A DNA stretch of 64,000 nt, from positions 5,022,001 through 5,086,000 of the forward strand of contig CM059432.1 of the NCBI GenBank assembly GCA_030390025.1, written 5' to 3'. Each line of letters opens with the position of its first letter. Positions within the stretch are counted from its first letter, which is position 1. The notes beneath the pieces are model-generated. The model searched no databases. It was not told the DNA's origin and worked only from the letters and a program-made list of their open reading frames with translations. Shown piece after piece: positions 1 through 63,545 of the stretch. The stretch comes from Squalus acanthias (lineage: Eukaryota). Made by a program: the position numbers and the translations under genes.

Positions 1-192
1 CTTCCCTAAAAGGAAGTTAGTGAACCAGTTGGGTTTTAACGACAATCCAGTGGTTTCATGGTCACTTTTAGTGCCACCAGCTTTCTACTTCCAGATTATT
101 ACTGTATGTTTTTAATAAAACTGATTTCAAATTGCCAGGGTGGGATTTGAATTCGCATTCCCTGGATTACTAGTCCAGTAACATAACCACTG
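1..192 (-). mobile_element. tRNA-like head fragment of the tRNA-headed LINE/SINE family
   Basis: Similar to 18560..18760 (gtggttatgttactggactagtaatccag...ttcaaatcccacc on minus). Confidence 0.75.
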
Positions 193-307
193 TAGTAATG
201 CAATATTTTACTTACGCACCAAGTAAATCTCAAAGTGGAAACAAATATGCATAATGCTATTCTTGGTTAAGTTGATTTGTTAACAGCAGTTTTGGAATCG
301 ACTTTAC

Positions 308-397
308 CTTGTGGCCTTGTGTCGCAGATCAATGATAATATCCACTTCAATCTGACAGCAGTTGAAAAGAACGAGTGTAACGGGGACTAAACACAAA
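308..397 (-). CDS. TRAPPC8: TRAPPC8 exon (LCLVPVTLVLFNCCQIEVDIIIDLRHKAT)
   Basis: ccacag| acceptor, AG|gtaaag donor, 90 nt, phase 2 to 2. Confidence 0.94.
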
Positions 398-1182
398 CTG
401 TGGAACAGACAAAAAGGACATCAAAAAATGTTACAGATCCTTCATGTGCTCAAACATATCTATATTTAACAAACCTTTAACTCAATATGCTACAAGTAAG
501 AATTGTGTTTATATCGGATTCAGTAATGATGTTTAGAAACAGACAAAGTCTTGCATTAATTCAACTTTGGCAGAAAGACCATGAATTAAACTAGTCAAAA
601 ATACTTTTCCCCTCCCCCCAATTCTCTGAATGCAGGTGATCATAGAATTTTGCATTAGTCACTCAATGCAGCAGTGACACATGCAATCGAGTGTATAAAG
701 AACATTAAAAAAAATCCCTCGAGGTACTCTCGGCACAGACACGATGGTCCAAATGGCCTCCTTCTGTGCTGTATCATTCTATGATATCCAACTTTTGAAT
801 AACCCCAATATTTGTTAGCTCCATTAACTTGCTTTTTAGCTGAAGTTAAGTCCTGTTGCCTCACGAATCCTTTTGCTGTAATTTGACTTCCTGGGTTTCG
901 CTCATAATTTATATTCTATCGACTACAATGTGTTTCCCCCTTTATCCAGCTTATTACTAGACAGTAAAGTATGTTAATCTGAATTTAAAGCAGTATTTTG
1001 AGCGGAACAGCAAGTGCCAATCATGCTGTTCAAGACTTTTCGTATAATGGAATATAATACAACTAATAATTGGAGAAAAGTAGTTCAGAGGCTCCGTGCA
1101 CAAGAGGAATTAAAAGATCACATCGTTCCACCAAAAATCTCAAACAAAAATGCCCTTAAGATTTAGTTAAAGCTATACAAGA

Positions 1183-2990
1183 ACAATTTGTATTTATAGG
1201 GCGCCTTTACTGTAGAGAAACTTCTCAAAGTGTTTCACTGAATCGTAATCAGACAAAAATCTGCTCCTTTGGCTCAGCATTGATATCAGGAAGGCTGACT
1301 GACAGCTTGGTCAGAGACACAGGTTTTAAGGAGGGTCTTAAAAGAGGAGAGGCAGAGAGTTTTAGGAAACAAATTCCGAGATGTCTGAAGGCACAGCCGC
1401 CAATTGGGGGTGTGAGCGAAGGGAGCGGGAGAAGGACAGGAGGCCAGATTTGGAGGAACGCAGAGCTCTCAGGGTTATAGAGCTTGAGGAGGTTAGAGAC
1501 AGGGAGGGGCGAGGGCACGAAGGGATTTAAACATGATTGGAGAGTTGGGGCATGGAAGCCAATAAGCACAAGGGTGAGAACAGGATGAAGGGCCGCAGAT
1601 ATTTGAATAAAGTAACAGCGTGGAGAGAGAGAGAGAGGCCGGCTAAGAGAGTATTGCAATAGTAGAGTCTGGAGATGACAAAGACAGGGATGAGAGTTTC
1701 AGCAGCAGATGGGATGAGGCGGGGATATTATGGAGGATGAAGTAGGCGGGGTTTGTGATGGGAGAGGATATGGGATCAGAAGCTCAGTTCAGCGTCAAAT
1801 AGGACGCCGAGATTGCAAACAGTCTGGTTCAACCAGAGACAGTTGCCGGGGAAAGGGATGGAAGCGGTAGTGAGGGTAGGGAGTTTGTGGCGGGGGCTGA
1901 AAACAGTTTTTTGGTCTTCTGAATGTTTACTGGTGGAAAGTACAGCATTCCCAGGACTGGCTGTTGGACAAGCAGTCTGACAGCACCAAAGCAGTGGAGG
2001 GGTTGAGAGCGCTGGTGAAGAGATAGAGCTGCTGTCTACGGTCTACTTGGCCCTGTCTTTGCTAATGAGGTCAAGAGTCAGCACGTAGATGAGGAAAAGG
2101 TGGTGGCCAAGGACAGATCGTTGGGGGACTCGGGAGGCAATAGTGTGGGGGTAGGAAAAGAAGCCATTGCTGGAACTGATTTGGCTACACATGAATAGGC
2201 AAGAGTGGAACCCAGCGAGGGCAGTCCCACTGAGCTGGACAAGGGAGGAGAGACATTGGAGGAGGATGGTGTAGTCCACCATAAGAAGCTTCAATGGTCA
2301 AGAAGGACAAGGAGGGATAGTACACCATGGTCACAGTCACACAGGATGTCACTGGTGACTTTTATCAGGACCATTTCAGTGCTGTGGCAGGGGTGGAAAC
2401 CTAATTGGAAAGATTCAAATGGGAAAGATGAGCACAGATTTGTGAGGTGACTACACGTTCAAGGACTTTGAAGAAGAGGAAAGGGAGGCTGGAGATGGGA
2501 CGGTAGTTGGCAAGGAAAGAGGTGGAGGGCAAGATTTTTGAAGGTAGGGGCGAGGTGTTGAGGGATATTTTGAAAGGGAGGGGAACCATTTGCAATGCCA
2601 GCTAGCATGTGAGCCAGGAGGGAAAGTTGGGTGGTCAGCAGTTTAGCAGGAATGGGGTTGAGAGAGTAGGGGGTGGGTTTCATGGACAAGATGAGCTCAG
2701 AGATCAAGAGGGTAGATAGGAGAGAAATTAGAGAAAGATGTGGGCAAGTGGGAACCTATGAGGAGGCTTGGCAGGAAGGGCGGGGGTGATTGTGGCAGAG
2801 GCAGCTGAACAGATGGTATCAACATTAGTGACAAGGAATAAGCCCATGAGTTCTTGGTAACATGTTCTTGGCGGTGTGGGTGGAGGGGACAGGGGTTTAA
2901 GCAAACGATTGGTAGTGGGGAAAAGAAGCCAGAAGTTATCTTTGCCCCCCCAGGATGATCCTGGTATAGTGGATGGTTTTGGCAGATGGG
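1183..2990 (-). mobile_element. Degenerate L2-clade LINE, 3' part
   Basis: RT fragments NYRPISSLPF..KVLERVV and VPQRSVLG..LFLIY; L2-type 3' tail near 1183. Confidence 0.8.
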
Positions 2991-3013
2991 GAATAAAGCC
3001 CAATAGTGCTTCA

Positions 3014-3570
3014 CTATTCCAACGCACTCCTGGTAGGCCTCCACGTTCTACCCTCCGTAAACTTGAGGTCATCCAAAACTCTGCTGCCCGTGTCCTAACT
3101 CACACCAAGTCTCGTTCACCCATCACCCCTGTGCTCGCTGACCTACATTGGCTCTCGGTTAAACAACGTCTCAATTTTAAAATTCTCATCCTTGTTTTCA
3201 AATCCCTCCATGGCCTCACCCCTCCCTATCTCTAATCTCCTCCATATACACAACACCCCACCCCCGAGATCTCTGCACTCCTCTAATTCTAACCTCTTGA
3301 GCAACCCCGATTTTAAATCGCTCCACCATTGGTGGCCGTGCCTTCAGCTGCCTAGGCTCGAAGCTCTGGAATTCCCTCCCTAAACACTTCTATCTCTCTT
3401 TCCTCCTTTAAGACGCTTCTTAAAACGAACCTCTTTGACCAAGCTTTTGGTCATCTGCCCTAATATCTCCATGTGGCTCGGTGTTGAATTTTGTTTGATA
3501 ATCACTCCTGTGAAGTGCCTTGGGACATTTTACTACGTTAAAGGCGCTATATAAATACAAGTTGTTGTTA
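3014..3570 (+). mobile_element. L2-clade LINE 3' end
   Basis: KLEVIQNSAARVLT...PITPVLADLHWL; tail ttaaaggcgctatataaatacaagttgttgtt. Confidence 0.88.
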
Positions 3571-5619: not shown

Positions 5620-8600
5620 GTAATGGTAACCATGAAACTATCGGATTCTCGTAAAAACCCACCTGGTTCACTAATGTCCTTTAGGGAAGGAAATCTGCCG
5701 TCCTTACCCGGTCTGGCCTATATGTGACTCCAGAACCACAGCAATGTGGTTGACTCTTAACTGCCCTCTGAAATGGCCTAGCAAGCCACTCAGTTGTAAC
5801 TAACCACTACGAAACAAAATAATAAGAATGAAACTGGACAGACCACCCGGCATCGACCTCGGCACTGGCTGCGGACACGGCAACGGCACACCCAGCCCAG
5901 TCAACCCTGCAAAGTCCTCCTCACCAACATCTGGGGACTTGCGCCAAAATTGGGAGAGCTGTCCCACAGACTAGTCAAGCAACAGCCTGACAGTCATACT
6001 CACAGAATCATACCTTTCAGCCAATGTCCCAAACTCCTCCATCACCATCCCAGGGTATATCCTGTCCCACCAGCAGGAGTGGTGGCACAGTGGTATACAG
6101 TCGGGAAGGAGTGGCCCTGGGAGTCCTCAACATTGACTACGGACCCCATGAAGTCTCATGGCTTCAGGTCAAGCTTGGGCAAGGAAACCTCCTGCTGATT
6201 ACCACCTACCGCCCTCCCTCAGCTGATGAATCAGTACTCCTCCATGTTGAACACCACTTGGAAGAAGCACTGAGGGTAGTAAGGGCACAGAATGTACTCG
6301 GTGGGGGACTTCAATGTCCATCACCAAGAGTGGCTCAGGAGCACCACTACTGACTGAGCTGGCCGAGTCCTGAAGGACATAGCTGCCAGTCTGGGCCTGC
6401 GACAGGTGGTGAGCGAACCAACACGAGGGAAAAACCTACTTGACCTCGTCCTCACCAATCTATCTGTCGCAGATGCATCTGTCCATGACAGCAGTGACCA
6501 CCGCACAGTCAAGGTGGAGACCAAGTCCCGTCTTCACACTGAGGACACCCTCCATCGTGTTGTGTGGCACTACCACCGTGCTAAATGGGATAGATTCAGA
6601 ACAGATCTAGCAGCTCAAAACTGGGCATCCATGAGGTGCTGTGGGCCATCAGCAGCAGAAGAATTGTATTCCACCACAATCTGTAACCTCATGGCCCGGC
6701 ATATCCCTCATTCTACCATTACCACCAAGCCAGGGGACCAACCCTGGTTCAACAAGGAGTGTAGAAGAGCATGCCAGGAGCAGCACCAGGCATACCTAAA
6801 AATGAGGTGCCAACCTGGGGAAGCTGCAACACAGGACTACATGCATGCTAAAAAGCGGAAGCAGCATGCTATAGACAGGGCTAAGCGATCCCACAATCAA
6901 CAGGTCAGATCAAAGCTCTGCAGTCCTGCCACATCCAGTCGTGAATTGTGGTGGACCATTAAACAACTAATGGGAGGAGGAGGCTCCATGAATATCCCCA
7001 TCCTCAATGATGGTGGAGCCCAGCACATGAGTACAGAAGACAAGGCTGAAGCGTTTGCAACCAACTTCAGCCAGAAGTGCTGAGTGGATGATCCATATCG
7101 GCCTACTCCCGAGGTCCCCACCATCACAGAAGCCAGTCTTCAGCCAATTCGATTCACTCCACGTGATATCAAGAAACGGCTGAGCGCACTGGATACAGCA
7201 GAGGCTATGGGCCCCGACAACATCCCGGCTATCGTGAAGACTTGTGCTCCAGAACTAGCCGCGCCTCTAGCCAAGCTGTTCCATTACAGCTACAACACTG
7301 GCATCTATCCGACAATGTGGAAAACTGCCCAGGTATGTCCTGTCCACAAAAATCAGGACAAATACAATCTGGCCAATTACCGTCCCATCAGTCTACTCTC
7401 AATCATCAGCAAAGTGATGGAAGGCATCATCGAAAGTGCTATCAAGCAGCACTTACTCACCATTAACCTGCTCACGGATGCCCAGTTTGGGTTCCGCCAA
7501 GACCACTCGGCTCCCGACCTCATTACAGCCTTGGCCCAAACATGGACAAAGGAGCTGAATTCCAGAGGTGAGGTGAGAGTGACTGCCCTTGACATCAAGG
7601 CAGCATTTGACCAAGTGTGGCATCAAGGAGCCCCAGTAAAACTGAAGTCAATGTGAATAGGGGGGAAAATGCTCCACTGGCTGGAGTCATACCGAGCACA
7701 AAGGAAGATGGTTGTGGTGGTTGGAGGTCAATCATCCCAGCCCCAGGACATCGCTGCAGGAGTTTCTCAGGGCAGTGCCCCAGGCCCAACCATCTTCAGC
7801 TGCTTCATCAATGACCTTCCCTCCAACATAAGGTCAGAAATGGGGATGTTCGCTGATGACTGCAGAGTGTTCAGTGCCATTCACAACTCCTCAGATAATG
7901 AAGCAGTCCATGCCCGCATGCAACAAGACCTGGACGACGTTCAGGCTTGGGCTGATAAGTGGCAGGTAACATTCACGCCAGGCAATGACTATCTCCAACA
8001 AGCGAGAGTCTAACCACCTCCCCATGACATTCAATGGTATTACCATCGCCGAATCCCCCACCATCAACATCCTGGGGGTCACCATTAACCAGAAATTAAC
8101 TAAACTAGCCACAAATACTGTGGCAACAAGAGCAGGTCAGAGGCTGGGTATTCTGCGGCGAGTGTCTCACCTCCTGACTCCCCAGAGCCTTTCCAACATC
8201 TACAAGGCACAAGTAAGGAGTGTGATGGAATACTCTCCACTTGCCTGGATAAGTGCAGCTCCAACAACACTCAAGAAGCTCGACACCATCCAGGACAAAG
8301 CAGCCCGCTTGATTGGCACCCCATCCGCCACCTTAAACATTCCCTCCCTCCACCACCGGCGTACCATGGCTGCAGTGCGTACCATCTACAAGATGCACTG
8401 CAGCAACTCGCCAAGGCTTCTTCGGCAGCACCTCCCAAACCCGCGACCTCTTCCACCTAGAAGGACAAGGGCAGCAGGCTCTTGGGAACACCATCACCTC
8501 CAAGTTCCCCTCCAAGTCACACACCATCCAGAGTTAGTAGTATATCGCCGATCCTTCATCGTCGCTGGGTCAAAATCCTGGAACTCCCTCCCTAACAGCA

Positions 8601-8740
8601 CTGTGGGAGCACTTTCACCACACGGACTGCAGCGGTTCAAGAAGGAGGCTCACCACCACCTTCTCAAGGGCAATTAGGGATGGGCAATAAATGCTGGCCT
8701 TGCCAGCGACACCCACATCCCATAAACAAATTAAAAAAAA
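5620..8740 (+). mobile_element. Near full-length single-ORF LINE (APE endonuclease + RT; CR1/L2 group, Zenon/Crack-like), disrupted
   Basis: YRPPS, GDFN-like, LDL.LT, SDH; RT NYRPISLL, QFGFR, LDIKAAFD, FADD, YKAQVRSVMEY; frameshifts and stops; AATAAA + A-rich tail. Confidence 0.92.
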
Positions 8741-9241
8741 ATATAAGTGAATGGCTAAAATAATCTTGGAATGTTACTTTAAATTGAGAGTACAAGAGGA
8801 CACAGATTCAAACTAGTAAAAGGTAAATTCAAGACTATCAGGAGATTCTTCTTCATACAAAAAAACATCAATATATGGAACAGACTTCCAGATAGAGTAG
8901 TGGAGCTGAAAAGCCTGGAAACATTTAAAGAAACAACTGGATGCTACAGTGTGGGAACGTGAAGATATTTCTAGATGAATTTCTGGATGGATAAATTAAG
9001 ATGGCCTGAATGGTCGTCTTCATTCTTAATAATCTTGCTATCTCTGGAATCCATAGCCCCAGGAAAATACCAGCAGTGTTCATATTTGGATTTTGAGAAG
9101 AGCATTTTCAAAAAGCAATGGGAAGACTGCAAGGCAAATAAAACCATTAATGGAGCGAAGTTAAGTTGATTTAGATTATAAAAAAAGTCACAAAAACACA
9201 ATGGCACTGGGCACAGTTGGCAACAGTTAGAAATGAGGTAC

Positions 9242-14926: not shown

Positions 14927-17900
14927 CTTTTTTTTTTAAAGATTCATTCCTGGGATGTGGGAGTCACTGGCAAGGCCAGCATTTATTGCCCATCCCTAAC
15001 TGCCCTTGAGAAGGTGGTGGTGAGCCGCCTTCTTGAACCACTGCAATCAGTGTGGTGAAGGTACTCCCACAGTGCTGTTAGGAAGGGAGTTCCAGGATTT
15101 TGACCCAGCAACGATGAAGGAACGGCAATATATTTCCAAGTCAGGATGGTGTGTGACTTGGAGGGGAACTTGGAGGTGATTGTGTTCCAAGGCGCCTGCT
15201 GCCCATGTCCTTCTAAGTGGGAGAGGTCACGGTTTTGGGTGGCGCTGTCGAAGAAGCCTTGGCGAGTTGCTGCAGTGCATCTTGTAGATGGTACACACTG
15301 CAGCCACGGTGCGCCGGTGGTGGAGGGAGTGAATGTTTAAGGTGGTGGATGGGGTGCCAATCAAGCGAGCTGCTTTGTCCTGGATGATGTCGAGCTTCTT
15401 AAGTGTTGTTGGAGCTGCACTCATCCAGGCAAGTGGAGAGTATTCCATCACACTCCTAATTTGTGCCTTGTAGATGGTGGAAAGGCTTTAGGGAATCAGG
15501 AGTCACCACTGAATACCAGCCTGACCTGCTCATGTAGCCACATGTGGCTGGTCCAATTAAGTTTCTGGTCAATGGTGACCCCCAGGATGTTGATGGTGGG
15601 GGATTCGGCAATGGTAATGCCTTTGAATGTCAAGGGGCGTTGGTTAGACTCCTCTTGTTGCAGATAGTCATTGCCTGGCACTTGTGTGGCACCAATGTTA
15701 CTTGCCACTCATCAGCACAAGCCTGAATGTTGTCCAGATCTTGCTGCATGCGGACATGGACGGCTTCATTATCTGGGGAGTTGCGAATGGAACTGAACAC
15801 TGTGCAGTCATCAGCGAACATTCTCACTTCTGACCTCATGATGGAGGTGGTCATTGATGAAGCAGCTGAAGATGGTTGGGCCCAGGACCTCCCTGAGGAA
15901 CTCCTGGGGTGGAGATGATTGACCTCCAACAACCACGACCATCTTGCTTTGTGCTAGGTATGACTCCAGCCAGTGGAGAGTTTTCCCCAATTCTCACTGA
16001 CTTCAATTTTACTAGGGCTCCTTGATGCCACACTCGGTCAAATGCTGCCTTGATGTCAAGGGCAGTCACTCTCACCCCACCTCTGGAATTCAGCTCCTTT
16101 GTCCATGTTTGGACCAAAGCTGTAATGAGGTCTGGAGCCGTGTGGTCCTGGCGGAACCTGAACTGAGCATCGGTGAGCAGGTTATTGGTGAGTAAGTGCC
16201 GCTTGATAGCACTGTCGATGACACCTTCCATCACTTTGCTGATAATTGAGAGTAGACTGATGGGGCGGTAATTGGCCGGATTGGATTTGTCCTGCTTTTT
16301 GTGGACAGGACATACCTGGGCAGTTTTCCACATTGTCGGGTAGATGCCAGTGTTGTAGCTGTACTGGAATAGCTTGGCTAGAGGCACGGCTAGTTCTGGA
16401 GCGCAAGTCTTCAGCACGACAGCTGGGATGTTGTTGGGTCCATACCCTTTGCTGTATCCAGTGTGCTCAGCCGTTTCTTGATATCACGTGAAGTGAATCG
16501 AATTGGCTGAAGACTGGCTTCTGTAATGGTGGGGACGTCAGGAGGAGGCCGATATGGATCATCCACTCGGCACTTCTGGCTGAAGATGGTTGCAAACGCT
16601 TCAGCCTTGTCTTTTGCACTCGTGTGCTGGGCTCCGCCATCATTGAGGATGGGGATATTCATGGAGCCTCCTCCTCCCCCCGTTAGTTGTCTAAATGTCC
16701 ATCACCATCCACAGCAGGACTGCAGAGCTTTGATCTGATCCGTTGATTGCGGGATCGTTTAGTTCTGTCTATAGCATGCTGCTTTTGCTTTTTAGTATAC
16801 ATGTAGTCCTGTGTTGCAGCTTCCCCAGGTTGGCACCTCATTTTTAGGTAAGCCTGGTGCTGCTCCTGGCATGCTCGTCTGCACTCCTCATTGAACCAGG
16901 GTTGGTCCCCTGGCTTGATGGTAATGGTAGAGTGTGAGGGATATGCCGGGCCATGAGGTTACAGATTGTGGTGGAGTATAATTCTGTTGCTTCTGATGGC
17001 CCACAGCGCCTCATGGATGTCCAGTTTTGAGCTGCTAGATCTGTTCTATCCCATTTAGCACGGTGGTAACAGAAGAACATAAGAAATAGGAGCAGGAATA
17101 GGCCACTTGGCCCCTTGAGCTTGCTCCGCCATTCAATAAGATCATGGCTGAACTTGGGCTCAAAGCCACTTCCCTGCCCGCTCCCCATAACCCTTCACTC
17201 CCTTATCTTGCAAAAATCTGTATCTCCACCTTAAATGTATTTAATGATCCAGCCTCCACGGCTCTCTGCGGCAGAGAATTCCACAGATTTATGACCCTCT
17301 GAGGGAAAAAGTTCCTCCTCATCTCAGTTCTAAAAGGGCGACCCTTTATTCTGAAACTATGCCTCGGAGTTCTAGATTTCCCCACAAGGGGAAACATCCT
17401 CTCTGCATCTACTTTGTCGAGCCCCCTCAGTATCTTATATGTTTCAATAAGATCACCTCTCATTCTTCTAAATTCCAATGAGTATAGGCCCAACCTGTTC
17501 AACCTTTCTTCATAAGTCAACCCCCTCATCTCAGGAATCAACCGAGTGAATCGTCTCTGAACTGCCTCCAATGGAAGTATATCCTTCCTTAAATAAGGAG
17601 ACCAAAACTGTATGCAGTACTCAAGGTGTGGTCTCACCAATACCCTGTACAGTTGTAGCAGGACTTCCCTGCTTTTATACTCCAACCCCCTTGCAATAAA
17701 GGTCAACATTCCATTTGCCTTTTTGATTGCTTGGTGGTAGTGCCACACAACACGATGGAGGGGGCCCTCAGTGTGAAGATGGGTCTTCGCTTCACAAGGA
17801 CTGTGCGGTGGTCACTGCTACCAATGCTGTCATGGACAGATGTATCTGCGACAGGTAGATTGGCGAGGACAAGGTCAAGTAAGTTTTTCCCCTTGTGTTG

Positions 17901-18775
17901 GGGTTCTCTCCAGCTGCCGCAGGCCCAGTCTGGCAGCTACATCCGTTCGGACTCGGCCAGTCGTGGTGCTACCAAGCCACTCTTGGTGATGGATATTGAA
18001 GTCCCCCACCCAGAGTACATACTGTGCCTTTGTGCTTCTTCCAAGGGGTGTTCAACATAAAGGAGTACCGATTCATCAGCTGAGGGAGGGCGGTAGGTGG
18101 TAATCAGCAGGAGGTATCCTTACCCAGGAGCCTGAAGCCATGAGATTTCATGGGGTCTGGAGTCAATGTTGAGGACTCCCAGGGCCACTCCCTCCCGTAT
18201 ACCAATGTGCCGCCGCCTCTGGTGGGTCTGTCCTGCTGGTCTGTCAGGATGGTGATCGAGTAGTCTGGGACATTGGCTGAAAGGTATGATTCTGTGAGTA
18301 TTCTGTGAGGCTGTTGCGTGACAGATCTCCCAATTTTGACAGTCCCTAGATGTTAGCGAGGAGGACTTTGCAGGGTCGAAGTCGTGTCCAAAGTCGGTGC
18401 CGAGGACGATGGTTTTATTCTTATTATTGTTTTCTGTAGCAGTTTGTTACAACTGATTGGCTTGCTAGGCCATTTCAGAAAGGCAGTTAAGAGTCAACCA
18501 CATTGCTGTGGGTCTGGAGTCACATATAGGCCAGACCGGGTAAGGACTGCGGATTTCCTCCCCTAAAGGGCAGATGTTTTTTTTTTTTTTTTTTTTAACG
18601 ACAATCCAATAGTTTCGTGGTCACCATTACGGATACTAGCTTTTTATTCCAGATTTAATTAATTGAATTTAAATTCCCCAACTGCCGTGGTGGGATTTGA
18701 ACTCATGTCTCTGGATCATTAGTCCAGGCCTCTGGATTACTAGTCCAGTAACATAACCACTATGCCACCATACCC
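14927..18775 (-). mobile_element. Full-length copy of the single-ORF LINE with tRNA-like 5' head (contains CR1 insertion)
   Basis: Collinear with 5620..8740; box A TGGCATAGTGG 18757..18767, box B-like AGTTCAAATCC 18693..18703; poly-A tail near 14927. Confidence 0.9.
17069..17732 (-). mobile_element. 5'-truncated CR1 nested in the LINE, 7-bp TSD GGTGGTA
   Basis: ORF 17203..17748 [22 protein letters not shown] at 17062..17068 and 17733..17739. Confidence 0.9.
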
Positions 18776-27887: not shown

Positions 27888-30053
27888 AATACAAAAGCAA
27901 AATTCTGCAGATGCTGGAAATCTCCTACGCTTGCACGGAAAGGCGAGGGGGTGATTGAAGAGTGGACCAGGGTGTCGCGGAGGGAGCGGTCCCTTCAAAA
28001 TGCTGAAAGGGGAGGGGAAGGGGAAAGAGGTGTCTGGTGGTGGTATCTCGAGCAGGAGATGCAACACCTGCCCTTTTACCTCCTCCCTTCCAACTGTCCA
28101 GAGCCGCAAACACTTCTTCCAGGTGAAACAGCGATTTACTTATACTTCTTGCAATTTAGTATACTGTATTCGCTGCTCATGATGCGGTTTCCTCTACATT
28201 GGGGAGACATAAGAACATAATAGGAGTAGGAGTTGGCTATTTGGCCCTTCGAGCCTACTCCGCCATTCAATAAGATCATGGCTGATCATCTACCTCAACT
28301 CTACTTTCCTGCACTATCCCCATATCCCTTGATTCCCTTAATATCCAAAAATCTATCGACCTCTCTTGAATATACTCAACGACTGAGCCTCCACAGCCCT
28401 CTGGGGTAGAGAAGTCCAAAGATTCACCACCCTCTGAGTGAAGAAATTTCTCCTCATCTCAGTCCTAAATGGCCGACCCCTTATTCTGAGACTGTGACCC
28501 CTAGTTCTAGACTCCCCAGCCAGGGGAAACATCCTCCCTACATCTACCCCGTCAAGCCCTGTAAGGATTTTGTATGTTTCAATGAGATCACCTCTCATTC
28601 TTCTAAACTCTACAGAATATAGGCAGAGCCTACTCAATCTCTCCTCAGGACAATCCCCCCCATCCCAGGAATCAGTCTGGTGAATCTTCGTTGCACTCCC
28701 TCTATGGCAAGTATATCTTTCCTTAGGTAAGGAAATCAAAACTGTACACAATACACCAGGTGTGGTCTCACCAGGGCCCTATATAAGTGCAGTAAGACGT
28801 CTTTACTCTTATACTCAAATCCTCTTGTAATAAAGTCCAACATACCATTTGGCCAACATACCATTTGCTTTCCTAATTGCTTGCTGTACCCTGTATGTTA
28901 ACTTTATGATTTGTGTACAAGGACACCCAGGTCCCTCTGAACACCAACATTTCCAAATCTCTCTCCAATTAAAAAATACTCTGCTTTTCTATTTTTCCTA
29001 CCAAAGTGGATAACTTCACATTTCTCCACATTATATTCCATTTGCCATGTTCTTGCCCACTCACTTAGCTTGTCTATATCCCCTTGAAGCCTCTTTGCAT
29101 CCTCCTCACAACTTACAACGTATCATCAGCAAACTTGGATATCACACATTTGGTCCCCTCATCCAAATCATGGATATCGATTGTGAGTAGCTGAGGCCCA
29201 AGCACTGATACCCCACTAGTTACAGCCTGCCAAACTGAAAATGACCCGTTTATTCCTACTCTCTGTTTTCTGTCCGTAACCAATCCTCAATCCATGCTAG
29301 TATATTACCCCCAATCCCATGAGCGCTAATTTGGTTTAACAACCTTGTGTGGCATCTTATCGAATGCCTTCTGAAAATCCAAATACACCACATCCACTTG
29401 TTCCCCCTTATCTATTCTGCTAGTTACGACCTCAAAAAACGAACAGATTCAGACCAAACGCAGATTGGGTGATCGCTTTGCGGAACACCTCCGTTCAGTC
29501 TGTAAGCGTGACCCTGAGCTTCCGGTCGCCTGTCACTTTAATTCTCTGCTCCACTCCCACTCTGATCTCTCCGTCCTCGGCCTCTTACACTGTTCCAATA
29601 AAGCTCAACGTAAGCTCGAGGAACAGCACCTCATCTTTCGATTAGGCACTTTACAGCCTTCTGGAGTCAACATTGAGTTCAACAATTTCAGATCATAACC
29701 TCTGCCCCTATTTTTTTCCCCACATGGCAGCTGTTGATTCTGCCATTCCCATTTACACCTCTTCTAGACTTATCTTTTGTTTCTTTACTTGTCCCATTAC
29801 CATCTCCTTTTGCTTTGTACAATCATACCTTTTGTCATTTAATCTCTCCTGCCTTCCATCCTATCACAGACCTTCCCCTTTTGTTCTTTCCTCCCCTCCC
29901 CCCTTCCCCTGCCCCTAACACTTGCTTAAAATCTGTTACATCTCCAACTTTTTCCAGTTCTGACGAAAGGTCATCGACCTGAAGCGTTAACTGTTTCTCT
30001 CTCTCCACAGATGCTGCCTGACCTGCTAAGTATTACCAGCATTTTCTGTTTTT
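27888..30053 (+). mobile_element. Penelope-like element, 3' part with GIY-YIG endonuclease, split by CR1
   Basis: NLVYCIRCS..GFLYIGET | KRRLGDRFAEH...HFN...LEEQHLIFRLGTLQPSGVN; inverted 5' segment 27888..28050. Confidence 0.88.
28209..29450 (-). mobile_element. CR1 nested in the Penelope GIY-YIG coding region
   Basis: RRMRGDLIETYKIL; AGAC at 28205..28208 and 29451..29454. Confidence 0.88.
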
Positions 30054-31187: not shown

Positions 31188-31958
31188 TAAGAACATAAGA
31201 ATTAGGAGCAGGAGTAGGCCATACGGCCCCTCGAGCCTGCTCTGCCATTCAATAAGATCATGGCTGATCTTCGACCTCAACTCCACTTTCCCACCCAATC
31301 TCCATATCCCTTGATTCCCAAAGTCCAAAAATCTATCGATCTCAGCCTTGAATATACTCCATGACTGAGCATCCACAGCCCACTGGGGAAGAGAATTCCA
31401 AAGATTCACCACCCTCTGAGTGAAGAAATTCCTCATCCAAAACCCCTTATCCCGAGACTATGCCCCCCAGTTCTAGACTCTCCAGCTGGGGGAACAGCCT
31501 CTCAGCATCTACCCTGTCAATCCCTGTAAGAATCAGATATGTTTCAATGAGATCACCTCTCATGCATCTAAACTCCAGAGTATAAGCCCAATCTACTCAT
31601 TCTCTCATAGGACAACCCTCTCATCCCAGGGATCAATCTAGTGAACCTTCATTGCACCGCCTCTAAGGCAAGTATATCCTTCCTTACATAAGGAGAACAA
31701 AACTGTGCACAGTACTCCAGGTGTGGTCTCACCAAAGCCCTGTACAATTGTAGCAAGACTTCCTTACTCTTGTACTCCAACCCCCTTTGCAATAAAGGCC
31801 AACATGCCATTTGCCTTCCTAATTGCTTGCTGTACCTACATGCTAACTATGTTTCCTGTACAAGGACACCCAAATCTCTGAACACCAACATTTAACAGTT
31901 TACCATTTAAAAAATATTCTGTTTTTCTATTCTTCCTACCAAAGTGAATAACCTCACG
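31188..31958 (-). mobile_element. CR1 3' end
   Basis: RNFFTQRVVNLWNSLP. Confidence 0.86.
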
Positions 31959-32068: not shown

Positions 32069-33385
32069 TGACAGCCACATAAGGAGAAATTAGGGCAGGT
32101 AACCAAAAGCTTGGTCAAAGGGGCAGGTTTTAAGGGGCGTCTTATAGGAGGAAAGAGGGGTAGCGAGGCAGAGGTTCAGGGAGGGAATTCCAGAGCTTAG
32201 GGCCTAGGCAACAGAAGGCACAGCCACCAATGGTTGCGCGATTATAATCAGGGATCCTCAAGAGGGCAGAATTAGAGGAGCGCAGATATCTGAGGGGGGG
32301 GGGGGGGGGTTCTGGGGCTGAAGGAGATTACAGAGATAGGAGGGGCGAGGCCATGGAGGGATTTGAAAACAAGGATGAGAATTTTGAAATCGAGGCGTTG
32401 CTTAACCGGGAGCCAACAAGCTTCTTCTTCTTCTTCGGCAGTCCCTCGGAACCGAGATGACTTGCTTCCACATTAAAAATGAGTTCTCAGGTGGCTGATG
32501 AGTCCAATGCGGGACCTACAGTCTCTGTCACAGGTGGGGCAGACGGTGGTTGAAGGGGCGGGTGGGTGGGGTGCTTGAGTTGACGTGCGCTTCTTCCGCT
32601 GTTTACGCTTGGCTTCCGCTTGCTCCCAGCGAAGAGACGATAAGTATTCGGCGCCTTCCCGGATGCTTCTCCTCCACTTTGTACAGTCTTGGGCCAGGGA
32701 TTCCCAGGTGTTGGTGGGGATGTTCCACTTTTTCCAAGGCGGCTTTGAGGGTGTCCTTGAAGCGTTTCCTCTGCCCACCTGGGGCTCTCTTGCCATGTCG
32801 GAGCTCCGAGAAGAGCACTTGTTTTGGGAGTCTCGTATTGGGCATGCGGACGATGTGACCCGTCCATCGGAACTGATCGAGCGTGGTGAAAGCGTCGATG
32901 CTGGCCTGAGCAAGAACACGGACGTTGGTGCGCCTATCCTGCCAATGGATTTGCAGGATCTTGCAGAGGCAGCATTGGTGGTACCTCTCCAGTACTTTGA
33001 GGTGCCTGCTGGACATGGTCCATGTCTCTGAGGCATACAGGAGCCAATGTAGGTCAGCAAGCACAGGGGTGATGGGCGAACGGGACTTGGTGCGAGTTAG
33101 GACACGGGCAGCCAAGTTTTGGATCACCTCAAGTTTACGTAGGGTAGAATTTGGGAGGCAAGCCAGGTGTGTTGGAATAGTCAAGTCTAGAGGTAACAAA
33201 GGCATGGATGAGGGTTTCAGCAGCGGATGAGCTGAGGCAAGGGCGGAGACGGGCGATGATAGAGGTGGAAATAGGCGTTCTTAGTTATGCTGTGGATGTG
33301 TGGTCGGAAGCTCATTTCAGGGTCAAATATGACACCAAGGTTGCGAACAGTGTGGTTCAGCCTCACAGATGTTAGGGAGAGGGAT
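32069..33385 (-). mobile_element. L2 fragment interrupted by RTE
   Basis: KLEVIQNLAARVLTRTKSRSPITPVLADLHWL. Confidence 0.85.
32417..33039 (-). mobile_element. RTE-clade (BovB-like) LINE 3' end, 8-bp TSD GGAGCCAA
   Basis: YASETWT, RWTGHIVRM, GGQRKRFKDTLK, CPTC..SRIGLISHLRTH; (GAA)n tail; TSD 32409..32416 / 33040..33047. Confidence 0.88.
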
Positions 33386-37802: not shown

Positions 37803-37928
37803 TAGACTCATACAATTTTACACTCACTGCGCATATAAAAACATTAATTTTTAACTACCATTTCAAACTGATTCATAAACAAGTGACATTACAGGCCAAA
37901 TCAAACCAGATATAAAAACACCACCTAC

Positions 37929-38371
37929 CTCAATTTTGAATGTGGTTTTGTACTCTCATAATAAAATAAAAAGTTTATCTCATGAACTCCTTCTTCGTCT
38001 GGTCCACGCAGCCACATGGGTAGCTGCACCGAAGCCCCAGGTAATAATACAGAGTCAGGGAGCGGTACATCAATCACCCAAAGCGGGTTTCCAGAGCCCA
38101 TGCCAAAGTCTGCAGGGGAAACCGACGATGTCACAGCTGAAGACGCGCACATGCTGTCGTTCACAACAGTCTTGTAGGCGCTGCAGTTTTCAGAAGCCGT
38201 GGGACTCAACGGCGTCAACACCGCAGTTTTACTCCCAAAGGAAAAGAAGTCCGGATCTTTGCACACAACTCTCAATCCAGTAAGCGGGCACTGGCTCACG
38301 TTCACAAACTCCACATACGTCTTTCTAATTTCCCCACAAAGTAGTCCAGTGGGAAAGTTAATGAAAAATAC
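37929..38371 (-). CDS. TRAPPC8: TRAPPC8 exon (VFFINFPTGLLCGEIRK...LPMWLRGPDEEGVHEINFLFYYE...KL)
   Basis: tgtgcag| acceptor, AG|gtaggt donor, 443 nt, phase 0 to 2; ORF 37925..38377. Confidence 0.97.
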
Positions 38372-38514
38372 CTGCACAAAAAAAAAACACTATAAATATA
38401 TATTTACTCTCAAAATTGAATCCAATATGTGCATGTATCTGTTCTGCATTTATCTGTTCAAGTCTAGAAAATACAGAACAATCGATACCTATGAAAACTG
38501 CATGCTTTCATTTA

Positions 38515-41054: not shown

Positions 41055-41718
41055 ATAAGAACATAAGAAATAGGAGCAGGAATAGGCCACTTGGCCCCTC
41101 GAGCCTGCACCGCCATTCAATAAGATCATGGCTGATCTTGGGCTCAAAGTCACTTCCCTGCCTGCTCCCCATAATCCTTCACTCCCTTATCTTGCAAAAA
41201 TTTGTCTATCTCCACTTTAAATGTATTTAATGACCCAGCCTCCACAGCTCTCTGGGGCAGAGAATTCCACAGATTTACGACCCTCTGAGAAGAAGTTCCT
41301 CCTCATCTCAGTTCTAAAAGGGCGACCCTTTATTCTGAGACTGTGCCCCCGAGTTCTAGATTTCCCCATGAGGGGAAACATCCTCTCTGCATCTACCCTG
41401 TCGAGCCCCCTCAGTATCGATATATGTTTCAATAAGGTCACCTCTCATTCTTCTAAATTCCAATGAGTATAGGCCCAGCCTGCTCAACCTTTCCTCAGAA
41501 GTCAAACCCCTCATCTCTGGAATTAACCGTGTGACTCGTCTCTGAACTGCCTCCAATGAAAGTATATCCTTCCTTAAAAGGAGACCAAAACTGCACGCAG
41601 TACTCAAGGTGTGGTCTCACCAATACCCTGTAAGTTGTAGCAGGACTTCCCTGCTTTTATACTCCAACCCCCTTGAAATAAAGGCCAACATTCCATTTGC
41701 CTTTTTGATTACTTGCTG
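41055..41718 (-). mobile_element. CR1 3' end
   Basis: LEAVQRRVTRLIPEM; close to 17069..17732. Confidence 0.86.
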
Positions 41719-41823
41719 ATACAGCACAGAAACAGGCCATTCGTCCCAATCAGTCCATGCCGGCGTTTATGTTCTATTCGAGCCTCCTCCCGCCTTTCCT
41801 CATCTAACTATCAGTATAACCCT

Positions 41824-49216: not shown

Positions 49217-52200
49217 GTGGTACAGGGAGCCAGTCAAGTGGGGGGAGCAAAAAGAAATGTGGTAGTGGTAGGGGACAGAATAGTTAGGGGGATAGACACT
49301 GTTCTCTGCAGCGTGAGTCCCGAAGGCTGTGTTGCCTGCCCTGCTGCCAGGGTAAAGGGCATCTCCTCCTGGCTGGAGAGGAACTTAGAGTGGGAGGGGA
49401 AGATCCAATTGTCGTGGTCCATGTAGGTACCAACGACATAGGTAGGACAAAGAAAGAGGTTCTGCTGAGCGAGTATGAGCAGCTAGGGGCTAAATTAAAA
49501 AGCAGAACCACAAAGGTAATCATCTCTGGATTACTACCTGAGCCACGTGCAAATTGGCATAAGGTAAATAAGATCAGAGAGATGAACAAGTGGCTCAAAC
49601 ATTGTTGTAGGAGAAATGGGTTTCAATTCTTGGGGCACTGGCACCAGTACTGGGGTAAGAGGGAGCTGTTCTGTCGAGATGGGCTTCATTTGAACCAGGC
49701 TGGGACCAGTGTCCTGGCGAATCGAGTAACTAGGGCTGTAGATAGGGCTTTCAACTAAATAGTGGAGGGTGGGGTGGGGGGGGGGGGGATGGATCCGCCG
49801 AGCAGAAATTTAAAATAAGTCAAATAAAAATGAAGGCAAAAGTGCAGGGTAGCGAAAGGGGTAATGATAACCAGAGTGTGACAGGAAGGGACAGAGCGTA
49901 TACACAAAAGAGTGCATCAGAAAGAGGGGTCAGAGTAGGGAAAAATGGTAAAAAGACATTAAAAGCTCTATATCTGAATGCACGCAGCATTCGTAACAAG
50001 ATAGATGAGTTGACAACACAAGTAGAAATAAATGGGTATGATCTGATAACCATTACAGAGACGTGGTTGCAAGGTGACCAAAGCTGGGAACTGAATATTC
50101 AGGGGTATTTGCCATTTCGTAAGGATAGGCAGAAAGGAAAAGGAGGTGGTGCAGCTCTGTTAATAAGGGATGAGATCAGCACAGTAGTGAGAAATGATAT
50201 TAGCTTAGAAGATCAAGACGTAGAATCAGTTAGGGTGGAGATAATAAATAATAAGGGTAAGTCGTCACTGCTGGGAGTGGTCTACAGGCCCCCAAACAGT
50301 AGCCACACTGTAGGACAGAGTATAAATCAAGAAATAATAGAGGCTTGTAAGAAAGGTACGGCTATAATCATGGGAGATTTTAATCTTCATATTGATTGGA
50401 CAAAGCAAATTGGCAAAGGTAGACTTGAGGAAGAGTTCTTAGAATGTATACATGATGGTTTCTTGGAACAATACGTTGTGGAACCAACCAGGGAGCAGAC
50501 TATTTTAGATCTGATAATGTGTAACGAGGCTGGATTAATTAATGATCTCGAAGTGAAGGATCCTCTTGGGAAGAGTGATCATAGCATGGTAGAATTTCAA
50601 ATTCAGTTTGAGGGCGAGAAAGCTAGGTCTCAAACTAGTGTCCTGAACTTAAATAAAGGGACAAAGGTATGAAGGCAGACTTGGTTAAAGTGGACTGGGA
50701 AAATATATTACAGGGTAGGGAAATTATTGGACAAAATTCTGAGGGACAGAATTAGTCTCCACTTGGAGAGGCAGGGATTAATCAGGGATAGTCAGCATGG
50801 CTTTGTCAGGGGGGAGATCATGTCTGACCAATTTGATTGAATTTTGAGAGGGGGTGACTAGGTGTGTGGATGAGGGTAGTGCAGTTGATGTAGTCTACAT
50901 GGACTTCAGTAAGGCTTTTGTCGAAGTCCCACATGGGAGACTGGTCAAGAAGGTAAGAGCCCATGGGATCCAGGGCAATTTGGCACATTGAATCCAAAAT
51001 TGGTTTAGTGGCAGGAGGCAGAGGGTGATGGTCGAAGGTTGTTTTTGTGACTGGAAGCCTGTGTCCAGTGGTGTACCGCAGGGATCGGTGCTGGGTCCTT
51101 TGCTGTTTGTAGTGTACATTAATGATTCAGATATGAATGTAGGAGGTATGATCAGTAAGTTCGCAGATGACACGAAAATTGGTGGAGTGGTAAATAGCGA
51201 GGAGGGAAGCCTCAGGCTACAGGACGATATAGACGGGATGGTTAGATGGGCAGAACAGTGGCAAATGGAATTTAACCCTGAAAAGTGTGAGGTGATGCAT
51301 TTTGGGAGGACTAACAAGGCAAGGGAATACACAATGAATGGTAGGACCCTAGGAAGGACCTTGGTGTGCATGTACATAGATCTCTGAAGGCAGGACAGGT
51401 AGATAAGGTGGTTAAAAAAGGCATATGGGATATTTATATTCTATGCCTCGGCTAATGAAGGCAAGAGCAGGGAGGTTATGATGGAGCTGTACAAAACGCT
51501 AGTTAGGCCACAGCTGGAATACTGTGTGCAGTTCTGGTCACCACACTCTAGGAAGGATGTGATTGCATTGGAGAGGGTGCAGAGGAGATTCACCAGGATG
51601 TTACCTGGGCTGCAGCGCTTCAGCTATGAAGAGAGACTGGACAGGCTGGGGGTGTTTTCCTTAGAGCAGAGAAGGCTGAGGGGGGACCTGATTGAAGTGT
51701 ACAAAATTATGAGGGGCATAGATAGGGTAGATAGAAAGGAACTTTTCCCCTTAGTAGAGGGGTCAATAACCAGGGGGCACAGTTTCAAGGTAAGGAGCAG
51801 GAGGTTTAGAGGGGATTTGAGGAAAAGCTTTTTCACCCAGAGGGTGGTTGGAATCTGGAACTCACTGCCTGAAAGGGTGGTAGAGGCAGGAACCCTCACA
51901 ACATTCAAGAAGCATTTAGATGAGCACTTGAAACGCCATAGCATACAAGGCTACGGACCAAGTGCTGGAAAATGGGATTAGAATAGACAGGGCTTGATGG
52001 CCGGCGCGGACACGATGGGCCTCTTTCTGTGCTGTATAACTCTATGACTCTATGACATTTGGAAAATCATAATATAGTCAAGCAGAGTCAGCATGGTTTT
52101 ATGAAAGAGAAATCATGTTTGACAAATTTGCTGGAGTTCTTTGAGGATGTAACGAGCAGGGTGGATAAAGAGGAACCAGTAGATGTCGTGTATTTGGATT

Positions 52201-53345
52201 TCCAGAGGGCATTTGATAAGGTGCCACATAAAAGGTTACTGCACAAGATAAGAGCTCACTGGGTTGGGGTAATATATTAGCATGGATAGAGGATTGGCTA
52301 ACTTACAGAAAACAGAGAGTCGGGAAAAATGTGTCATTTTCAGGTTGGCAAACTGTAACTAGTGGGGTGCCGCAGGGATCAGTGCTGGGGCCTCAACTAT
52401 TTACAATCTATATTAATGACTTGGATGAAGGGACCGAGTGTAATGTAGCCAAATTTGATGATAAAGATAGGTGGGAAAGCGAATTGTGTGGAGGACGCAA
52501 AGAATCTCCAAAGGGATATAGATCGGCTAAGTGAGTGGGCAAAAATCTGGCAGATGGAGTTTAATATGGGGAATATGCGAGGTTATCCACTTTGGTAGGA
52601 AAAATAAAAAGCAAATTATTTAAATGGGGAGAGGTTATAAAATGCTGAGGTACAGAGGGATCTGGGGGTCCTTGTACATGAATCATAAAAAGTTAGCATG
52701 CAGGTACAGCAAGTAATTAGGAAGGCAAATGGAATGTTGGCATTTATTGCAAAGGGAATGGAGTATAAATGTAGGGAAGTCCTGTTACAACTGTAAAGGG
52801 CATTGGTGAGACCACACCTGGAGTACTGCGTACAGTTTTGGTCTCCTTATTTAAGGTAGGATATACTTGCATTGGAGGCAGTTCAGAGAAGGTTCACGAG
52901 GTTGATTCCAGAGATGAAGGGGTTGTCTTATGAAGAAAGGTTGAGCCTATACTCATTGGAGTTTAGAAGAGAGGGGATCTTATTGAAACATATAAGTTTC
53001 TGAAGGGGCTTGACAGGGTTGATGCACAGAGGATCGTGGGGGAATCTCGAACTAGGGGGCATAATTTCAGAATAAGGGGTCACCTATTTAAAACGGAAAT
53101 GAGGAGGAATTTCTTCTCTGAGGGTCGTGAATCTTTGGAATTCTCTTCCCCAGAGAGCTGTGGAGGCTGAGTCATTGAATATATTCAAGGTGGAGAGACA
53201 GACAGATTTCTGAATGGTAAGGGAGTCAGGGGTTATGGGGAGCGGGCAGGAAAGTGGAGTTGAGGCCAAGATCAGATCAGCCATGAATCTTATTTATTGC
53301 AGGTTCGAGGGGCCAAATGATCTACTCCTGCTCCTACGTCTTATG
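49217..53345 (+). mobile_element. Composite CR1: ORF1 SGNH esterase, APE endonuclease and two RT/3' segments
   Basis: VHVGTNDIG/DGLHLN; YLNARSI, ITETW, YRPP, GDFN, SDH; RT of a second subfamily about 50714..52055; host-type RT 52056..53345. Confidence 0.9.
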
Positions 53346-53744
53346 TATCCTACCACCGACAGCACTCCCAAATATAAAAGGAGGCAAACTTCTAAAAACC
53401 AACGCCATTGGAACTCCACATTTTCATCACTCGTCCAGAACATTTCAGTAAGGAAAAGAGCCAACAGATTAATATTGTACAGAGTCAGGCCTGCTTTTGT
53501 AGGATAGCACACAGCACAAGACACTTTTTTCTGCTCTAAAGTGTGGCTCTCTCTCCTGATTGGAAGCGGAGGACCGGATGAATATGCAGTAACCAGTTAG
53601 CGTTTAAATCTGGGTTCCTGCTCACAATTGCTGCCTGGCAATCACTGGTGGAGGTGCTAATGTGGACACAAGGACAGGATAGGCCTTGGCTGTGTGGCTC
53701 TTGTGGTCGTACTGTCAATACTCAAAAGGAGACATAAAAGGCAC

Positions 53745-56042: not shown

Positions 56043-57415
56043 CTTTTTTTTTTATTCATTCCTGGGATGTGGGCATCGCTGGCAAGGCCAGCATTTATTG
56101 CCCATCCCTAGTTGCCCTTGAGAAGGTGGTGGTGAGCCGCCTTCTTGAACCGCTGCAGTCCCGTGTGGTGAAGGTGCTCCCACGGTGCTGTTAGGGAGGG
56201 AATTCCAGGATTTTGACCCAGCGACGATGAAGGAACGGCCGATATACTTCTAAGTCAGGATGGTGTGTGACTTGGAGAGGAACTTGGAGGTGGTGGTGTT
56301 CCCATATGGCTGCTGCCCTTGTCCTTCTAGGTGGAAGAGGTCGCGGGTTTGGGAGGTGCTGCCGAAGAAGCCTTGGCGAGTTGCTGCAGTGCATCTTGTA
56401 GATGGTGCACACTGCAGCCACGGCGCGCCGGTGGTGGAGGGAGTGAATGTTTAAGGTGGTGGATGGGGTGCCAATCAAGCGGGCTGCTTTGTCCTGGATG
56501 GTGTCGAGCTTCTTGAGTGTTGTTGCAGCTGCACTCATCCAGGCAAGTGGAGAGTATTCATCACACTCCTTACTTGTGCCTTGTAGATGGTGGAAAGGCT
56601 TTGGGGAGTCAAAGAGGTGAGACGCTCGCTGCAGAATACCTAGCCTCTGACCTGCTCTTGTTGCAACAGTATTTATGTGGCTGGTCCAGTTAAGTTTCTG
56701 GTCCATGGTGACCCCCAGGATGTTGATGGTGGGGGATCGGCGATGGTAATGCCGTTGAATGTCATGGGGAGGTGGTTAGACTCTCGCTTGTTGGAGACAG
56801 TCATTGCCTGGCAGTTCTGTGGCGCGAATGTTACCTGCCACTTATCAGCCCAAGCCTGAACGTCATCCAGGTCTTGTTGCATGCCGGCATGGACTGCTTC
56901 ATTATCTGAGGAGTTGTGAATGGCACTGAACACTGTGCAGTCATCAGCGAACATCCCCATTTCTGACCTTATGTTGGAGGGAAGGTCATTGATGAAACAG
57001 CTGAAGATGGTTGGGCCTAGGACACTGCCCTGAGGAACTCCTGGGGCTGTGATGATTGACCTTCAACCACCACAACCATCTTCCTGTGTGCTAGGTATGA
57101 CTCCAGCCAGTGGAGCGTTTGCCCCGATTCCCATTGACTTCAGTTTTACTGGGGCTCCTTGATGCCATACTCGGTCAAATGCTGCCTTGATGTCAAGGGC
57201 AGTCACTCTCACCTCACCTCGGGAATTCAGCTCCTTTGTCCATGTTTGGACGAAGGCTGTAATGAGGTCGGGAGCGGAGTGGTCTTGGCGGAACCCAAAC
57301 TGGGCATCAGTGAGCAGGTTATTGGTGAGTAAGTGTAGCTTGATAGCACTGTCGATGACACCTTCCATCACTTTGCTGCTGATTGAGAGTAGTAATTGGC
57401 CGGGTTGGATTTGTT
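56043..57415 (-). mobile_element. 5'-truncated copy of the single-ORF LINE
   Basis: QFGFR, LDIKAAFDRVWH, FADD; poly-A tail near 56045. Confidence 0.9.
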
Positions 57416-57814
57416 CTTATGAATGCATAACAATTTATTTGACCTAAAGCAGCCCCCACAACTATTAGATGCCGTACAAAGGTTTGGCTTCCATTTGTAG
57501 CTATAGTTGTAACAAGTCATCGTCTCTCTGACTAAAGAGTTGATTACTCTGTTGTAACTCATCTGTGCTTATTTATACTTTTTCTTCCATCACATGTATG
57601 GAGGAGTGGATATTAACTGCTTCCTGGGAGCGGCACGAGTCTAGACTTTCCGTTCCTTGATCAATAAACCAAGAGGAAAAATGTCATTAACAAAAACCTA
57701 GAGCAGGTGGGGAGGTGGTGTTCTGGGAAACAACAGTGTTGGAAGAATACAACCATGGCCATGACCAGGAGGAACCCCAATGATTTGTTTACAGTTGAAC
57801 TGGTTTGATCTCCG

Positions 57815-58187: not shown

Positions 58188-58688
58188 CGAATGGAATACC
58201 AAGTCAACAGGCCCAGTTCATCTTTGATCCAGGTAATGTTTGAGCTCCTTTAGGCTCAAAGATAGAAGATATTAAATGATGGGAAAAGGCAGATCTTTAA
58301 TACCATGTCAAAATAAACAGTAGGGGCAGTGGATTGCGAAAAGCAAATTAAAGATGGTCAGTAAGTTCTTCACAGAATGTACAAAATGGACTTCCACATA
58401 GGGTAGCAGACCCTCGTCAGTTTGAGCTGCAGCCAAGCCAGACGGTGAAGTGCCCCAGGGGTGAAAGGAATGTGTTGCAACGCACCACACCAGACACTTC
58501 AATATGTAAACCGTCAGGTAAATTATGTAAAGCGTATAAGCAGATTTAAAAACCCGAGAGAAATAGCCGATGAGAATTAGCAGACGATGAAAGCAGAAAT
58601 TTGCTAAGCTAATCCAATAGTTACAGAACCTCCTGTGCATATCAGTACTGAGCATAAAGCTGCAATTATTCCAGAAATGCTTCATTAC

Positions 58689-63184: not shown

Positions 63185-63545
63185 ATCATGGTTATCTTAC
63201 TGGACTAGTGATCCAGAACCCTGGGCTATTAATACAGAGAACTCCCACCATGGTAGTTTGAGAATTTGCATTCAGTTCAGTTTAAAAATAAAAAGCTGGT
63301 CATCAGTAAAAGTGATCACAAAGCTGTCGGATTGTCGTCGTGGGTTCACTGATGTCCTTTAAGGAAGGAAACCTGCCATCCTTACCCAGTCCAGCCTATA
63401 TGTGCCTCCAGTTGCACTCCAGCTCTTCACTGCCCTCAGAAGTGGCCGAACAAGCCACTCTGATATAAAATCAGGGCAACGAGGGATGGGCAATAAATAC
63501 CAACCTTGCCTGCGCCACTCACACCCCAGGAACGAATTAAAAAAG
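63185..63545 (+). mobile_element. SINE made of the 5' head and 3' tail of the single-ORF LINE
   Basis: ggttatcttactggactag...ggttcactgatgtcctttaaggaaggaaa...aagccactc joined to gggcaacgagggatgggcaataaat...aaaaaa. Confidence 0.75.

Follow-up and report, generated by a model that had tools for sequence, protein, structure and literature searches.

Retrotransposons are by convention divided according to the polymerase that transcribes them, with Pol II serving the coding LINEs and Pol III the non-coding SINEs. The window analysed here, which is the whole 64,000-nucleotide stretch of Squalus acanthias DNA, holds on its minus strand a LINE copy that begins with a tRNA-like sequence carrying the A and B boxes of a Pol III promoter. 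This locus raises the question of whether such a head belongs to the element and, if so, whether a LINE coding for its own reverse transcriptase (RT) could be transcribed from it.

The copy at 18775-14928 and its family

The stretch at 18775-14928 (minus strand) is a decayed, interrupted copy of a 3.3-kb LINE with an APE endonuclease and an RT in a single ORF, and represents a dead Zenon copy. It opens with the tRNA-like head (18683..18775), which starts with the GGG of 18775 that forms the 5' edge of the family and includes a long variable-arm hairpin, the A box TGGCATAGTGG (18767-18757) and the B box (18704-18694); the two boxes that an earlier note had read on the minus strand were thus recovered. 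The head is followed by an A+T-rich spacer (18631..18682) with an AATAAA at 18648, near position 130 of the element, and by a conserved leader of about 190 nt (18442..18630) that holds an in-frame ATG (18503-18501), is not a Deu domain and is partly replaced in this copy by a run of 20 A. The 5' part of the ORF, comprising the N-terminus and the APE endonuclease (17733..18503), and its 3' part, comprising the RT with a FADD motif at 15818, the C-terminus and the stop at 14998-14996 (14996..17068), are both broken and are separated by a nested 664-bp 3' fragment of a CR1-type LINE unrelated to Zenon (17069..17732, minus strand), with TACCACC on either side (17739-17733 and 17068-17062). The 3' UTR (14928..14995) has a nested hairpin fold, an AATAAA at 14987 and a poly(A) at 14937-14928. 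The frame of this copy carries many stops and shifts, two of the stops being no more than 20 codons away from the leader ATG, and its longest native open stretch is 210 aa. The description of a leader of about 420 nt running straight into the ORF therefore does not hold, since the frame is broken, the CR1-type insert interrupts the copy and the non-coding leader measures about 270-360 nt; the reported absence of an ORF1 is borne out by this copy and by the single-frame family alignment of 28 copies.

Further members of the family are present in the window. A second Zenon copy (5620..8741, plus strand), noted earlier near 5620-8740 as having its leader collinear with its ORF, shares both collinearly, starts inside the leader with the first ~150 nt missing and has no nested insert. 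A third copy (56043..57417, minus strand) is a 5'-truncated 3' end of 1.4 kb. An old short form (63189..63544, plus strand), in which the head and leader are joined to the 3' UTR, belongs to an amplified SINE-like family of about 400 nt, and an old head with the start of a leader (34..191, minus strand) runs off the window edge.

Other features of the window were also recorded. An exon of TRAPPC8 encoding the third Ig-like domain lies at 37925-38389 (minus strand; PF24544, E 2e-55). The position of this exon at about 38 kb, on the same strand as the Zenon copy, suggests an intronic or near-gene position for the latter. A frame at about 58308-59075 (minus strand) without a Pfam match resembles what we take to be another TRAPPC8 exon. 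A long canonical CR1-type copy (49288-51981, plus strand), in which a GDSL esterase ORF1 precedes an endonuclease frame, served as the Pol II-type comparator, and the 3' end of a LINE bearing a C2H2 finger at its C-terminus (32473-33280, minus strand; weak Pfam match) is presumably RTE-type, the clade being named from motifs. CR1-type 3' fragments of about 650 bp, alike in length, occur at 17069-17732, 28207-28851, 31189-31832, 41057-41721 and 52707-53346, that at 41057-41721 being 93% like the nested insert at 17069-17732; a preferred truncation point is possible.

The family is the elasmobranch Zenon, catalogued in 2026 (PMC13343379); that it has no ORF1 and ends in a poly(A) tail is already known. 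The portions of that paper compared here report Zenon from elasmobranchs, coelacanth and hagfish, in all cases without ORF1 and with poly(A), and its supplement gives seven elasmobranch consensuses from five species, namely three sharks of other orders, the dogfish and a stingray (SquAca_Zenon-1/2/3 and the Zenon-1 of CarCar, RhiTyp, ScyCan and HypSab). SquAca_Zenon-1 matches the present copies in motifs and, by eye, over the first 400 nt and is of similar length (3314 vs about 3300 nt), and within the material compared the published element and the present one agree in the single APE-RT ORF, the lack of ORF1 and the poly(A), with no difference in sequence. The element combines APE and RT in one ORF, has no ORF1 and ends in poly(A), as Zenon members do; its placement in the clade follows the tree as reported in the part of PMC13343379 compared, together with BLAST ranks. 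The closest database proteins are 35-42% identical and the canonical CR1 of the same genome 30%. In an unbiased sample of 100 evenly spaced 10-kb stretches, 72 chained matches covered 4.4% of the bases and seven were 5'-intact, which extrapolates to roughly 26,000 5'-intact copies genome-wide (2.8-14.4 per Mb), the family making up about 4% of the 3.7-Gb genome.

The words 'tRNA' and 'promoter' do not occur in the main text of PMC13343379, nor 'tRNA' in the supplement searched; within these parts the tRNA-type 5' end of the catalogued family is unremarked. The literature searched describes neither the head of shark Zenon nor an autonomous LINE driven by Pol III; Repbase or Dfam may describe the head. 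The literature compared includes the parts consulted of PMC5499810, PMC4494074, PMC3747384, PMC6740152, PMC4824008, PMC9004415, PMC11481361 and PMC10468316; four words of the family gave no match in a full-text literature search, nor did the supplements of PMC4824008 (files searched), PMC5804259 and PMC11481361.

It is the family, and not the copy at 18775-14928, that has the single frame. In the alignment of the 28 copies with both ends inside their stretch, out of 41 long copies fetched, one frame without a majority stop extends from element position 205 to 3238 by column count, and the natural frames of other copies contain APE (PF14529, PF03372) and RT (PF00078). Coding selection on this frame is shown in the RT half, where synonymous changes account for 56 of 57 variants common to at least four copies vs 251 of 635 singletons (P=1e-5); the first 65 codons have no synonymous excess. 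The leader ATG (position 274) is in frame, as the distance to the second ATG site is a multiple of three in 39 of 42 copies, 28 of these 39 having no stop in between, but in the printed consensuses it is in frame and open in only two of five species, by eye and with errors in A runs possible. The second ATG (~358) reads ATA in 22 of 42 copies, a state tied to a subfamily marker, and six AUGs lie upstream of position 274.

The tRNA-like head as part of the element

ARAGORN called a tRNA at 18683-18774 in the copy described above. Matches to the Rfam tRNA model were weak (E 0.78 for this copy and E 0.034 for another locus, L099, both below the gathering score) and spanned model positions 7-64 only, without an acceptor stem. 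The 5' end of the element has boxes A and B with tRNA-like spacing, in the layout of a type 2 Pol III promoter; the A box is present in 21 and the B box in 19 of the 28 aligned copies, and the window holds four A+B pairs, where Markov simulations give 0.08 per 64 kb. Folding does not turn the head into a cloverleaf, the 5' 342 nt fold no more stably than shuffled sequences (z -0.52), and the variable-arm hairpin, judged by eye, is kept between species that differ in its sequence.

A search with the head and the ORF start yielded 7676 candidates, 40 of which were scored, a query biased toward headed copies. Another search was made with endonuclease DNA alone, blind to the head. Among the 30 loci so obtained, head and leader were present in 15, the copy broke off in the leader in four, in the linker in four (one of them at a locus edge) and inside the endonuclease in seven. 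All endonuclease-anchored copies that extend far enough 5' have the head, and no alternative common 5' sequence was found at the break in the 16 truncated copies checked.

The edges of the element are sharp. Across the 28 aligned copies, the first G of GGGAAC marks a step in column agreement from about 0.4 to above 0.84, and agreement drops again beyond the poly(A). Other repeats surround seven of the 13 copies for which both edges could be placed, and in five of these seven the flanks rejoin cleanly (offsets -7, 0, +7, +8 and +11); of the other two, one is a tandem repeat and one has a single match. Clean rejoining of the flanks together with the sharp edges implies that head, ORF and tail were inserted as one piece. 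The earlier note had looked to target-site duplications spanning head and tail as a test of this, for which they proved unusable, a duplication of at least 6 nt being found in only two of 18 copies, one of them in a tandem repeat. The flanks of three loci (L109, L114 and L122) show insertions with target-site deletions of 7-11 nt, not duplications.

The tRNA-like head is thus an integral, family-wide part of a single-ORF LINE, and the head, the ~250-nt leader, the frame of ~960-990 codons, the hairpin 3' UTR and the poly(A) are shown to have moved as one unit. The expectation that full-length copies start at the tRNA head is answered by the sharp 5' edge at this point and by the headed half of the endonuclease-anchored loci, the rest being truncated, and the argument that the leader is not a chance SINE insertion is sustained by a junction that is collinear and family-wide. 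From the proposal of an autonomous LINE that captured a SINE/tRNA head, the autonomous single-ORF LINE with an integral, family-wide head stands, and the capture from a SINE is unproven.

The distribution of the head was examined in other Zenon elements. By eye, head and leader open all seven elasmobranch consensuses printed in the supplement of PMC13343379, and a perfect GGTTCGAATCC box occurs in three of them. A tRNA head is absent from the first 400 nt of the hagfish and coelacanth consensuses of that paper and, as far as its source was compared, from the lepidopteran, Zenon-derived Persaeus. An ARAGORN scan found no tRNA head at the 5' end of 57 metagenome Zenon-like loci (57 of 80 scanned), and the A+B pair is absent upstream in 11 of the closest metagenome relatives. 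Judged from these comparisons, the head is a feature of elasmobranchs that would be older than the separation of sharks and rays some 250-300 million years ago. The sole ARAGORN call in the metagenome contigs was a tRNA-Ala at 1829-1903 of L310, 80 nt upstream of the RT match, which could be a SINE inside or beside the LINE.

The short family and the source of the head

The SINE definition of a short, non-coding element does not apply to the LINE, with its 3.3 kb and selected ORF, and applies only to the ~400-nt family of head, leader and tail. This family is amplified and old (6315 candidates, of which 40 were scored); 29 of 30 of its loci end in the tail and none in the ORF. The last ORF codons are kept in four of 17 readable short copies. 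At three leader states the short copies match the LINE of this genome in 10, 10 and 8 of 30 cases, and the printed states of the other sharks and the ray in 0, 2 and 0. Among readable copies, 30 of 31 LINEs (41 examined) retain the leader ATG vs three of 12 short forms (30 examined; P=4e-6). On the strength of the ORF remnants, the leader states and the loss of the leader ATG, the short family is read as a deletion daughter of the headed LINE; it looks like a later derivative, assuming one Zenon lineage per host, and like a daughter rather than the donor of the head. Younger short forms have differing junctions, which suggests that such internal deletions recur. Short forms and LINEs do not differ significantly in best local identity in the unbiased sample (P=0.34, the alignments being short), and the values of 0.84 (short) vs 0.93 (LINE) come from a searched set picked by an old query.

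Contigs from four sequencing runs cover the head, leader and ORF and show neither starts, strand nor level. The leader segment at 4280-4441 of L099 reaches ~10- to 50-fold the ORF depth in three contig sets guessed to be RNA and ~2-fold in a large run; contig depth is unreliable, and the excess may reflect transcribed short forms.

A donor SINE for the head and leader was not found in the window and the unbiased sample, where all 18 holders of these parts (22 matches less four spurious) are the LINE, its short form or interrupted pieces. Likewise, none of 58 tail matches belongs to another LINE with the same tail: 47 are joined to the ORF end (one behind the leader), seven to the leader only and four are short truncations. 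The leader looks unlike the printed Meta domain when compared by eye. The identification of the leader as a Deu domain and of the short family as SacSINE1 was considered and ruled out by the Deu core of PMC7245038 and the real Deu SINEs of the genome. Deu-type cores (SacSINE1-like) number 26 in the window and a 1-Mb sample, four of them in the window at 22454 (+), 46300 (+), 30482 (-) and 59390 (-). None of the three Deu motifs printed in PMC7245038 occurs within the Zenon element, and of 32 Deu SINE stretches of the genome, which differ from it in head, body and tail, 30 gave no BLAST match to the element and two matched only through neighbouring inserted copies.

Transcription of the headed element

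If the boxes are functional, the coding RNA would have to pass through the whole element, and the T content of the sense strand was examined. The comparison of T-rich words involved 12 words, a null trained on one mutated copy, non-independent copies and a T-poor element (20%); within these limits, windows with four T out of five are depleted (1 vs 10.5 expected, P=0.003), the deficit spanning the ORF. Shared runs of four T (T4) are absent from the 28 copies across 3.29 kb (0 vs 2.3 expected), which is not significant alone (P=0.14). A, C and G show no deficit like that of the four-of-five T windows; C4 is also low (12 vs 25, P=0.012). Per kb, T4 occurs 0.20 times in Zenon (52 natural segments, 40 kb), compared with 2.4-4.2 times in CR1 elements and 1.9 times in RTE elements from this genome; in the copy at 18775-14928, the 3.2 kb of Zenon sequence contain no run of four or more T and the nested CR1 fragment of 664 bp contains four. 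At least four T4 runs are present in 46 of 46 headless relatives from metagenomes whose frames are long, these relatives being T-richer and near their own shuffle values for T4. Within the first ~330 nt, T4 is found in 18 of 30 old short copies vs six of 41 LINE copies, some stretches including flank; its presence in many old short copies is awkward if T4 acts as a strict stop.

On moderate, indirect evidence from sequence, transcription of the headed Zenon LINE by Pol III is the probable reading. TFIIIC would bind boxes A and B, and Pol III would start at the head and transcribe the 3.3 kb, read-through being possible, it is proposed, because the sense strand is without T4 and T-rich words; transcription would stop where the flank offers its first run of T. 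In view of the six upstream AUGs, translation of the uncapped RNA would bypass the usual scanning from a cap and begin at the leader ATG (274) or at the ATG at ~358. The protein would then prime reverse transcription at the end formed by the poly(A) and hairpin, yielding copies that are for the most part 5'-truncated and as a rule lack a target-site duplication. A single gain of the head, before sharks and rays separated, is likely. An uncapped 3.3-kb RNA with six upstream AUGs would be hard to translate, which weighs on this account. As a whole, the account of a dead elasmobranch Zenon copy with a tRNA-derived head as its likely internal Pol III promoter is given a somewhat better than even standing. 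The wider proposal, that of a LINE maintained on Pol III since before the shark-ray split, with a terminator-purged RNA, cap-free translation through the conserved leader and tRNA-headed SINEs spawned by deletion, could equally be right or wrong.

Unlikely, but the most serious of the alternatives, is that the head is integral and Pol II makes the coding RNA, through host read-through or a Pol II promoter in the leader, with the A and B boxes serving as a boundary, an enhancer or the source of short non-coding transcripts. LINEs are as a rule expressed from capped mRNAs made by Pol II, other Zenon elements without ORF1 manage without the head, the T4 result by itself lacks significance and an AATAAA precedes the poly(A) by 50 nt, which would suit Pol II too. 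However, the same motif also occurs in the spacer near position 130, the 5' edge coincides exactly with the start of the tRNA rather than lying in the flanks, the boxes are kept in five species and the deficit of T-rich words extends across the ORF.

It is quite improbable that the tRNA-like fold is instead a signal for RNA processing or stability, with a longer host transcript cut at the tRNA start in an RNase P-like manner, comparable to the ribozymes of the R2, RTE and Ingi LINEs. Cleavage would explain a sharp end at the tRNA +1 as well as initiation does, self-cleavage at the 5' end has been reported for several LINE clades (PMC5786205, in the part compared), and the hairpin of the variable arm persists between species despite sequence change; against this stand the Rfam match without an acceptor stem, the lack of a cloverleaf or of unusual stability at the 5' end, and the T deficit, which processing leaves unexplained.

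A chance SINE insertion beside the LINE, or a fusion with the Deu SINE SacSINE1, which might be entertained given the abundance of tRNA-headed SINEs in the window and the tRNA head and LINE-derived tail of SacSINE1 (PMC5499810, as far as compared), is refuted by the family-wide, collinear head-LINE junction and by the absence of Deu motifs and of genuine BLAST matches to Deu SINEs.

Should the transcription by Pol III be correct, a natural LINE would establish that an element can produce its reverse transcriptase from a long uncapped RNA, and would provide a direct route from a LINE to a tRNA-headed SINE. It would also offer a natural test of whether the polymerase sets the need for ORF1, as reported in the part of PMC2666806 compared. 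If Pol III is not used, a conserved, previously unremarked tRNA-derived 5' end on a catalogued family would still remain.

Among known systems, the Zenon elements of hagfish, coelacanth, Lepidoptera, molluscs and Hydra (CR1-Zenon) share the single ORF and the poly(A) with the present element. The Deu SINEs (SacSINE1, LmeSINE1 and AmnSINE1) have a tRNA-type head, a conserved body and the same host group, without similarity in sequence. RTE-1_DAn and related elements are LINEs noted to contain a tRNA-like sequence in the part of PMC5786205 compared, but belong to the RTE clade. In Bov-tA, SINE2-1_ACar, CoeSINE4 and the SIDEs (Persaeus and Vingi derivatives), as described in the parts of their sources compared, a tRNA head is combined with LINE parts in a manner resembling the head and the 5' and 3' LINE parts of the short family; in those elements it was a non-coding deletion form that acquired the head, whereas here the head is on the autonomous parent itself.
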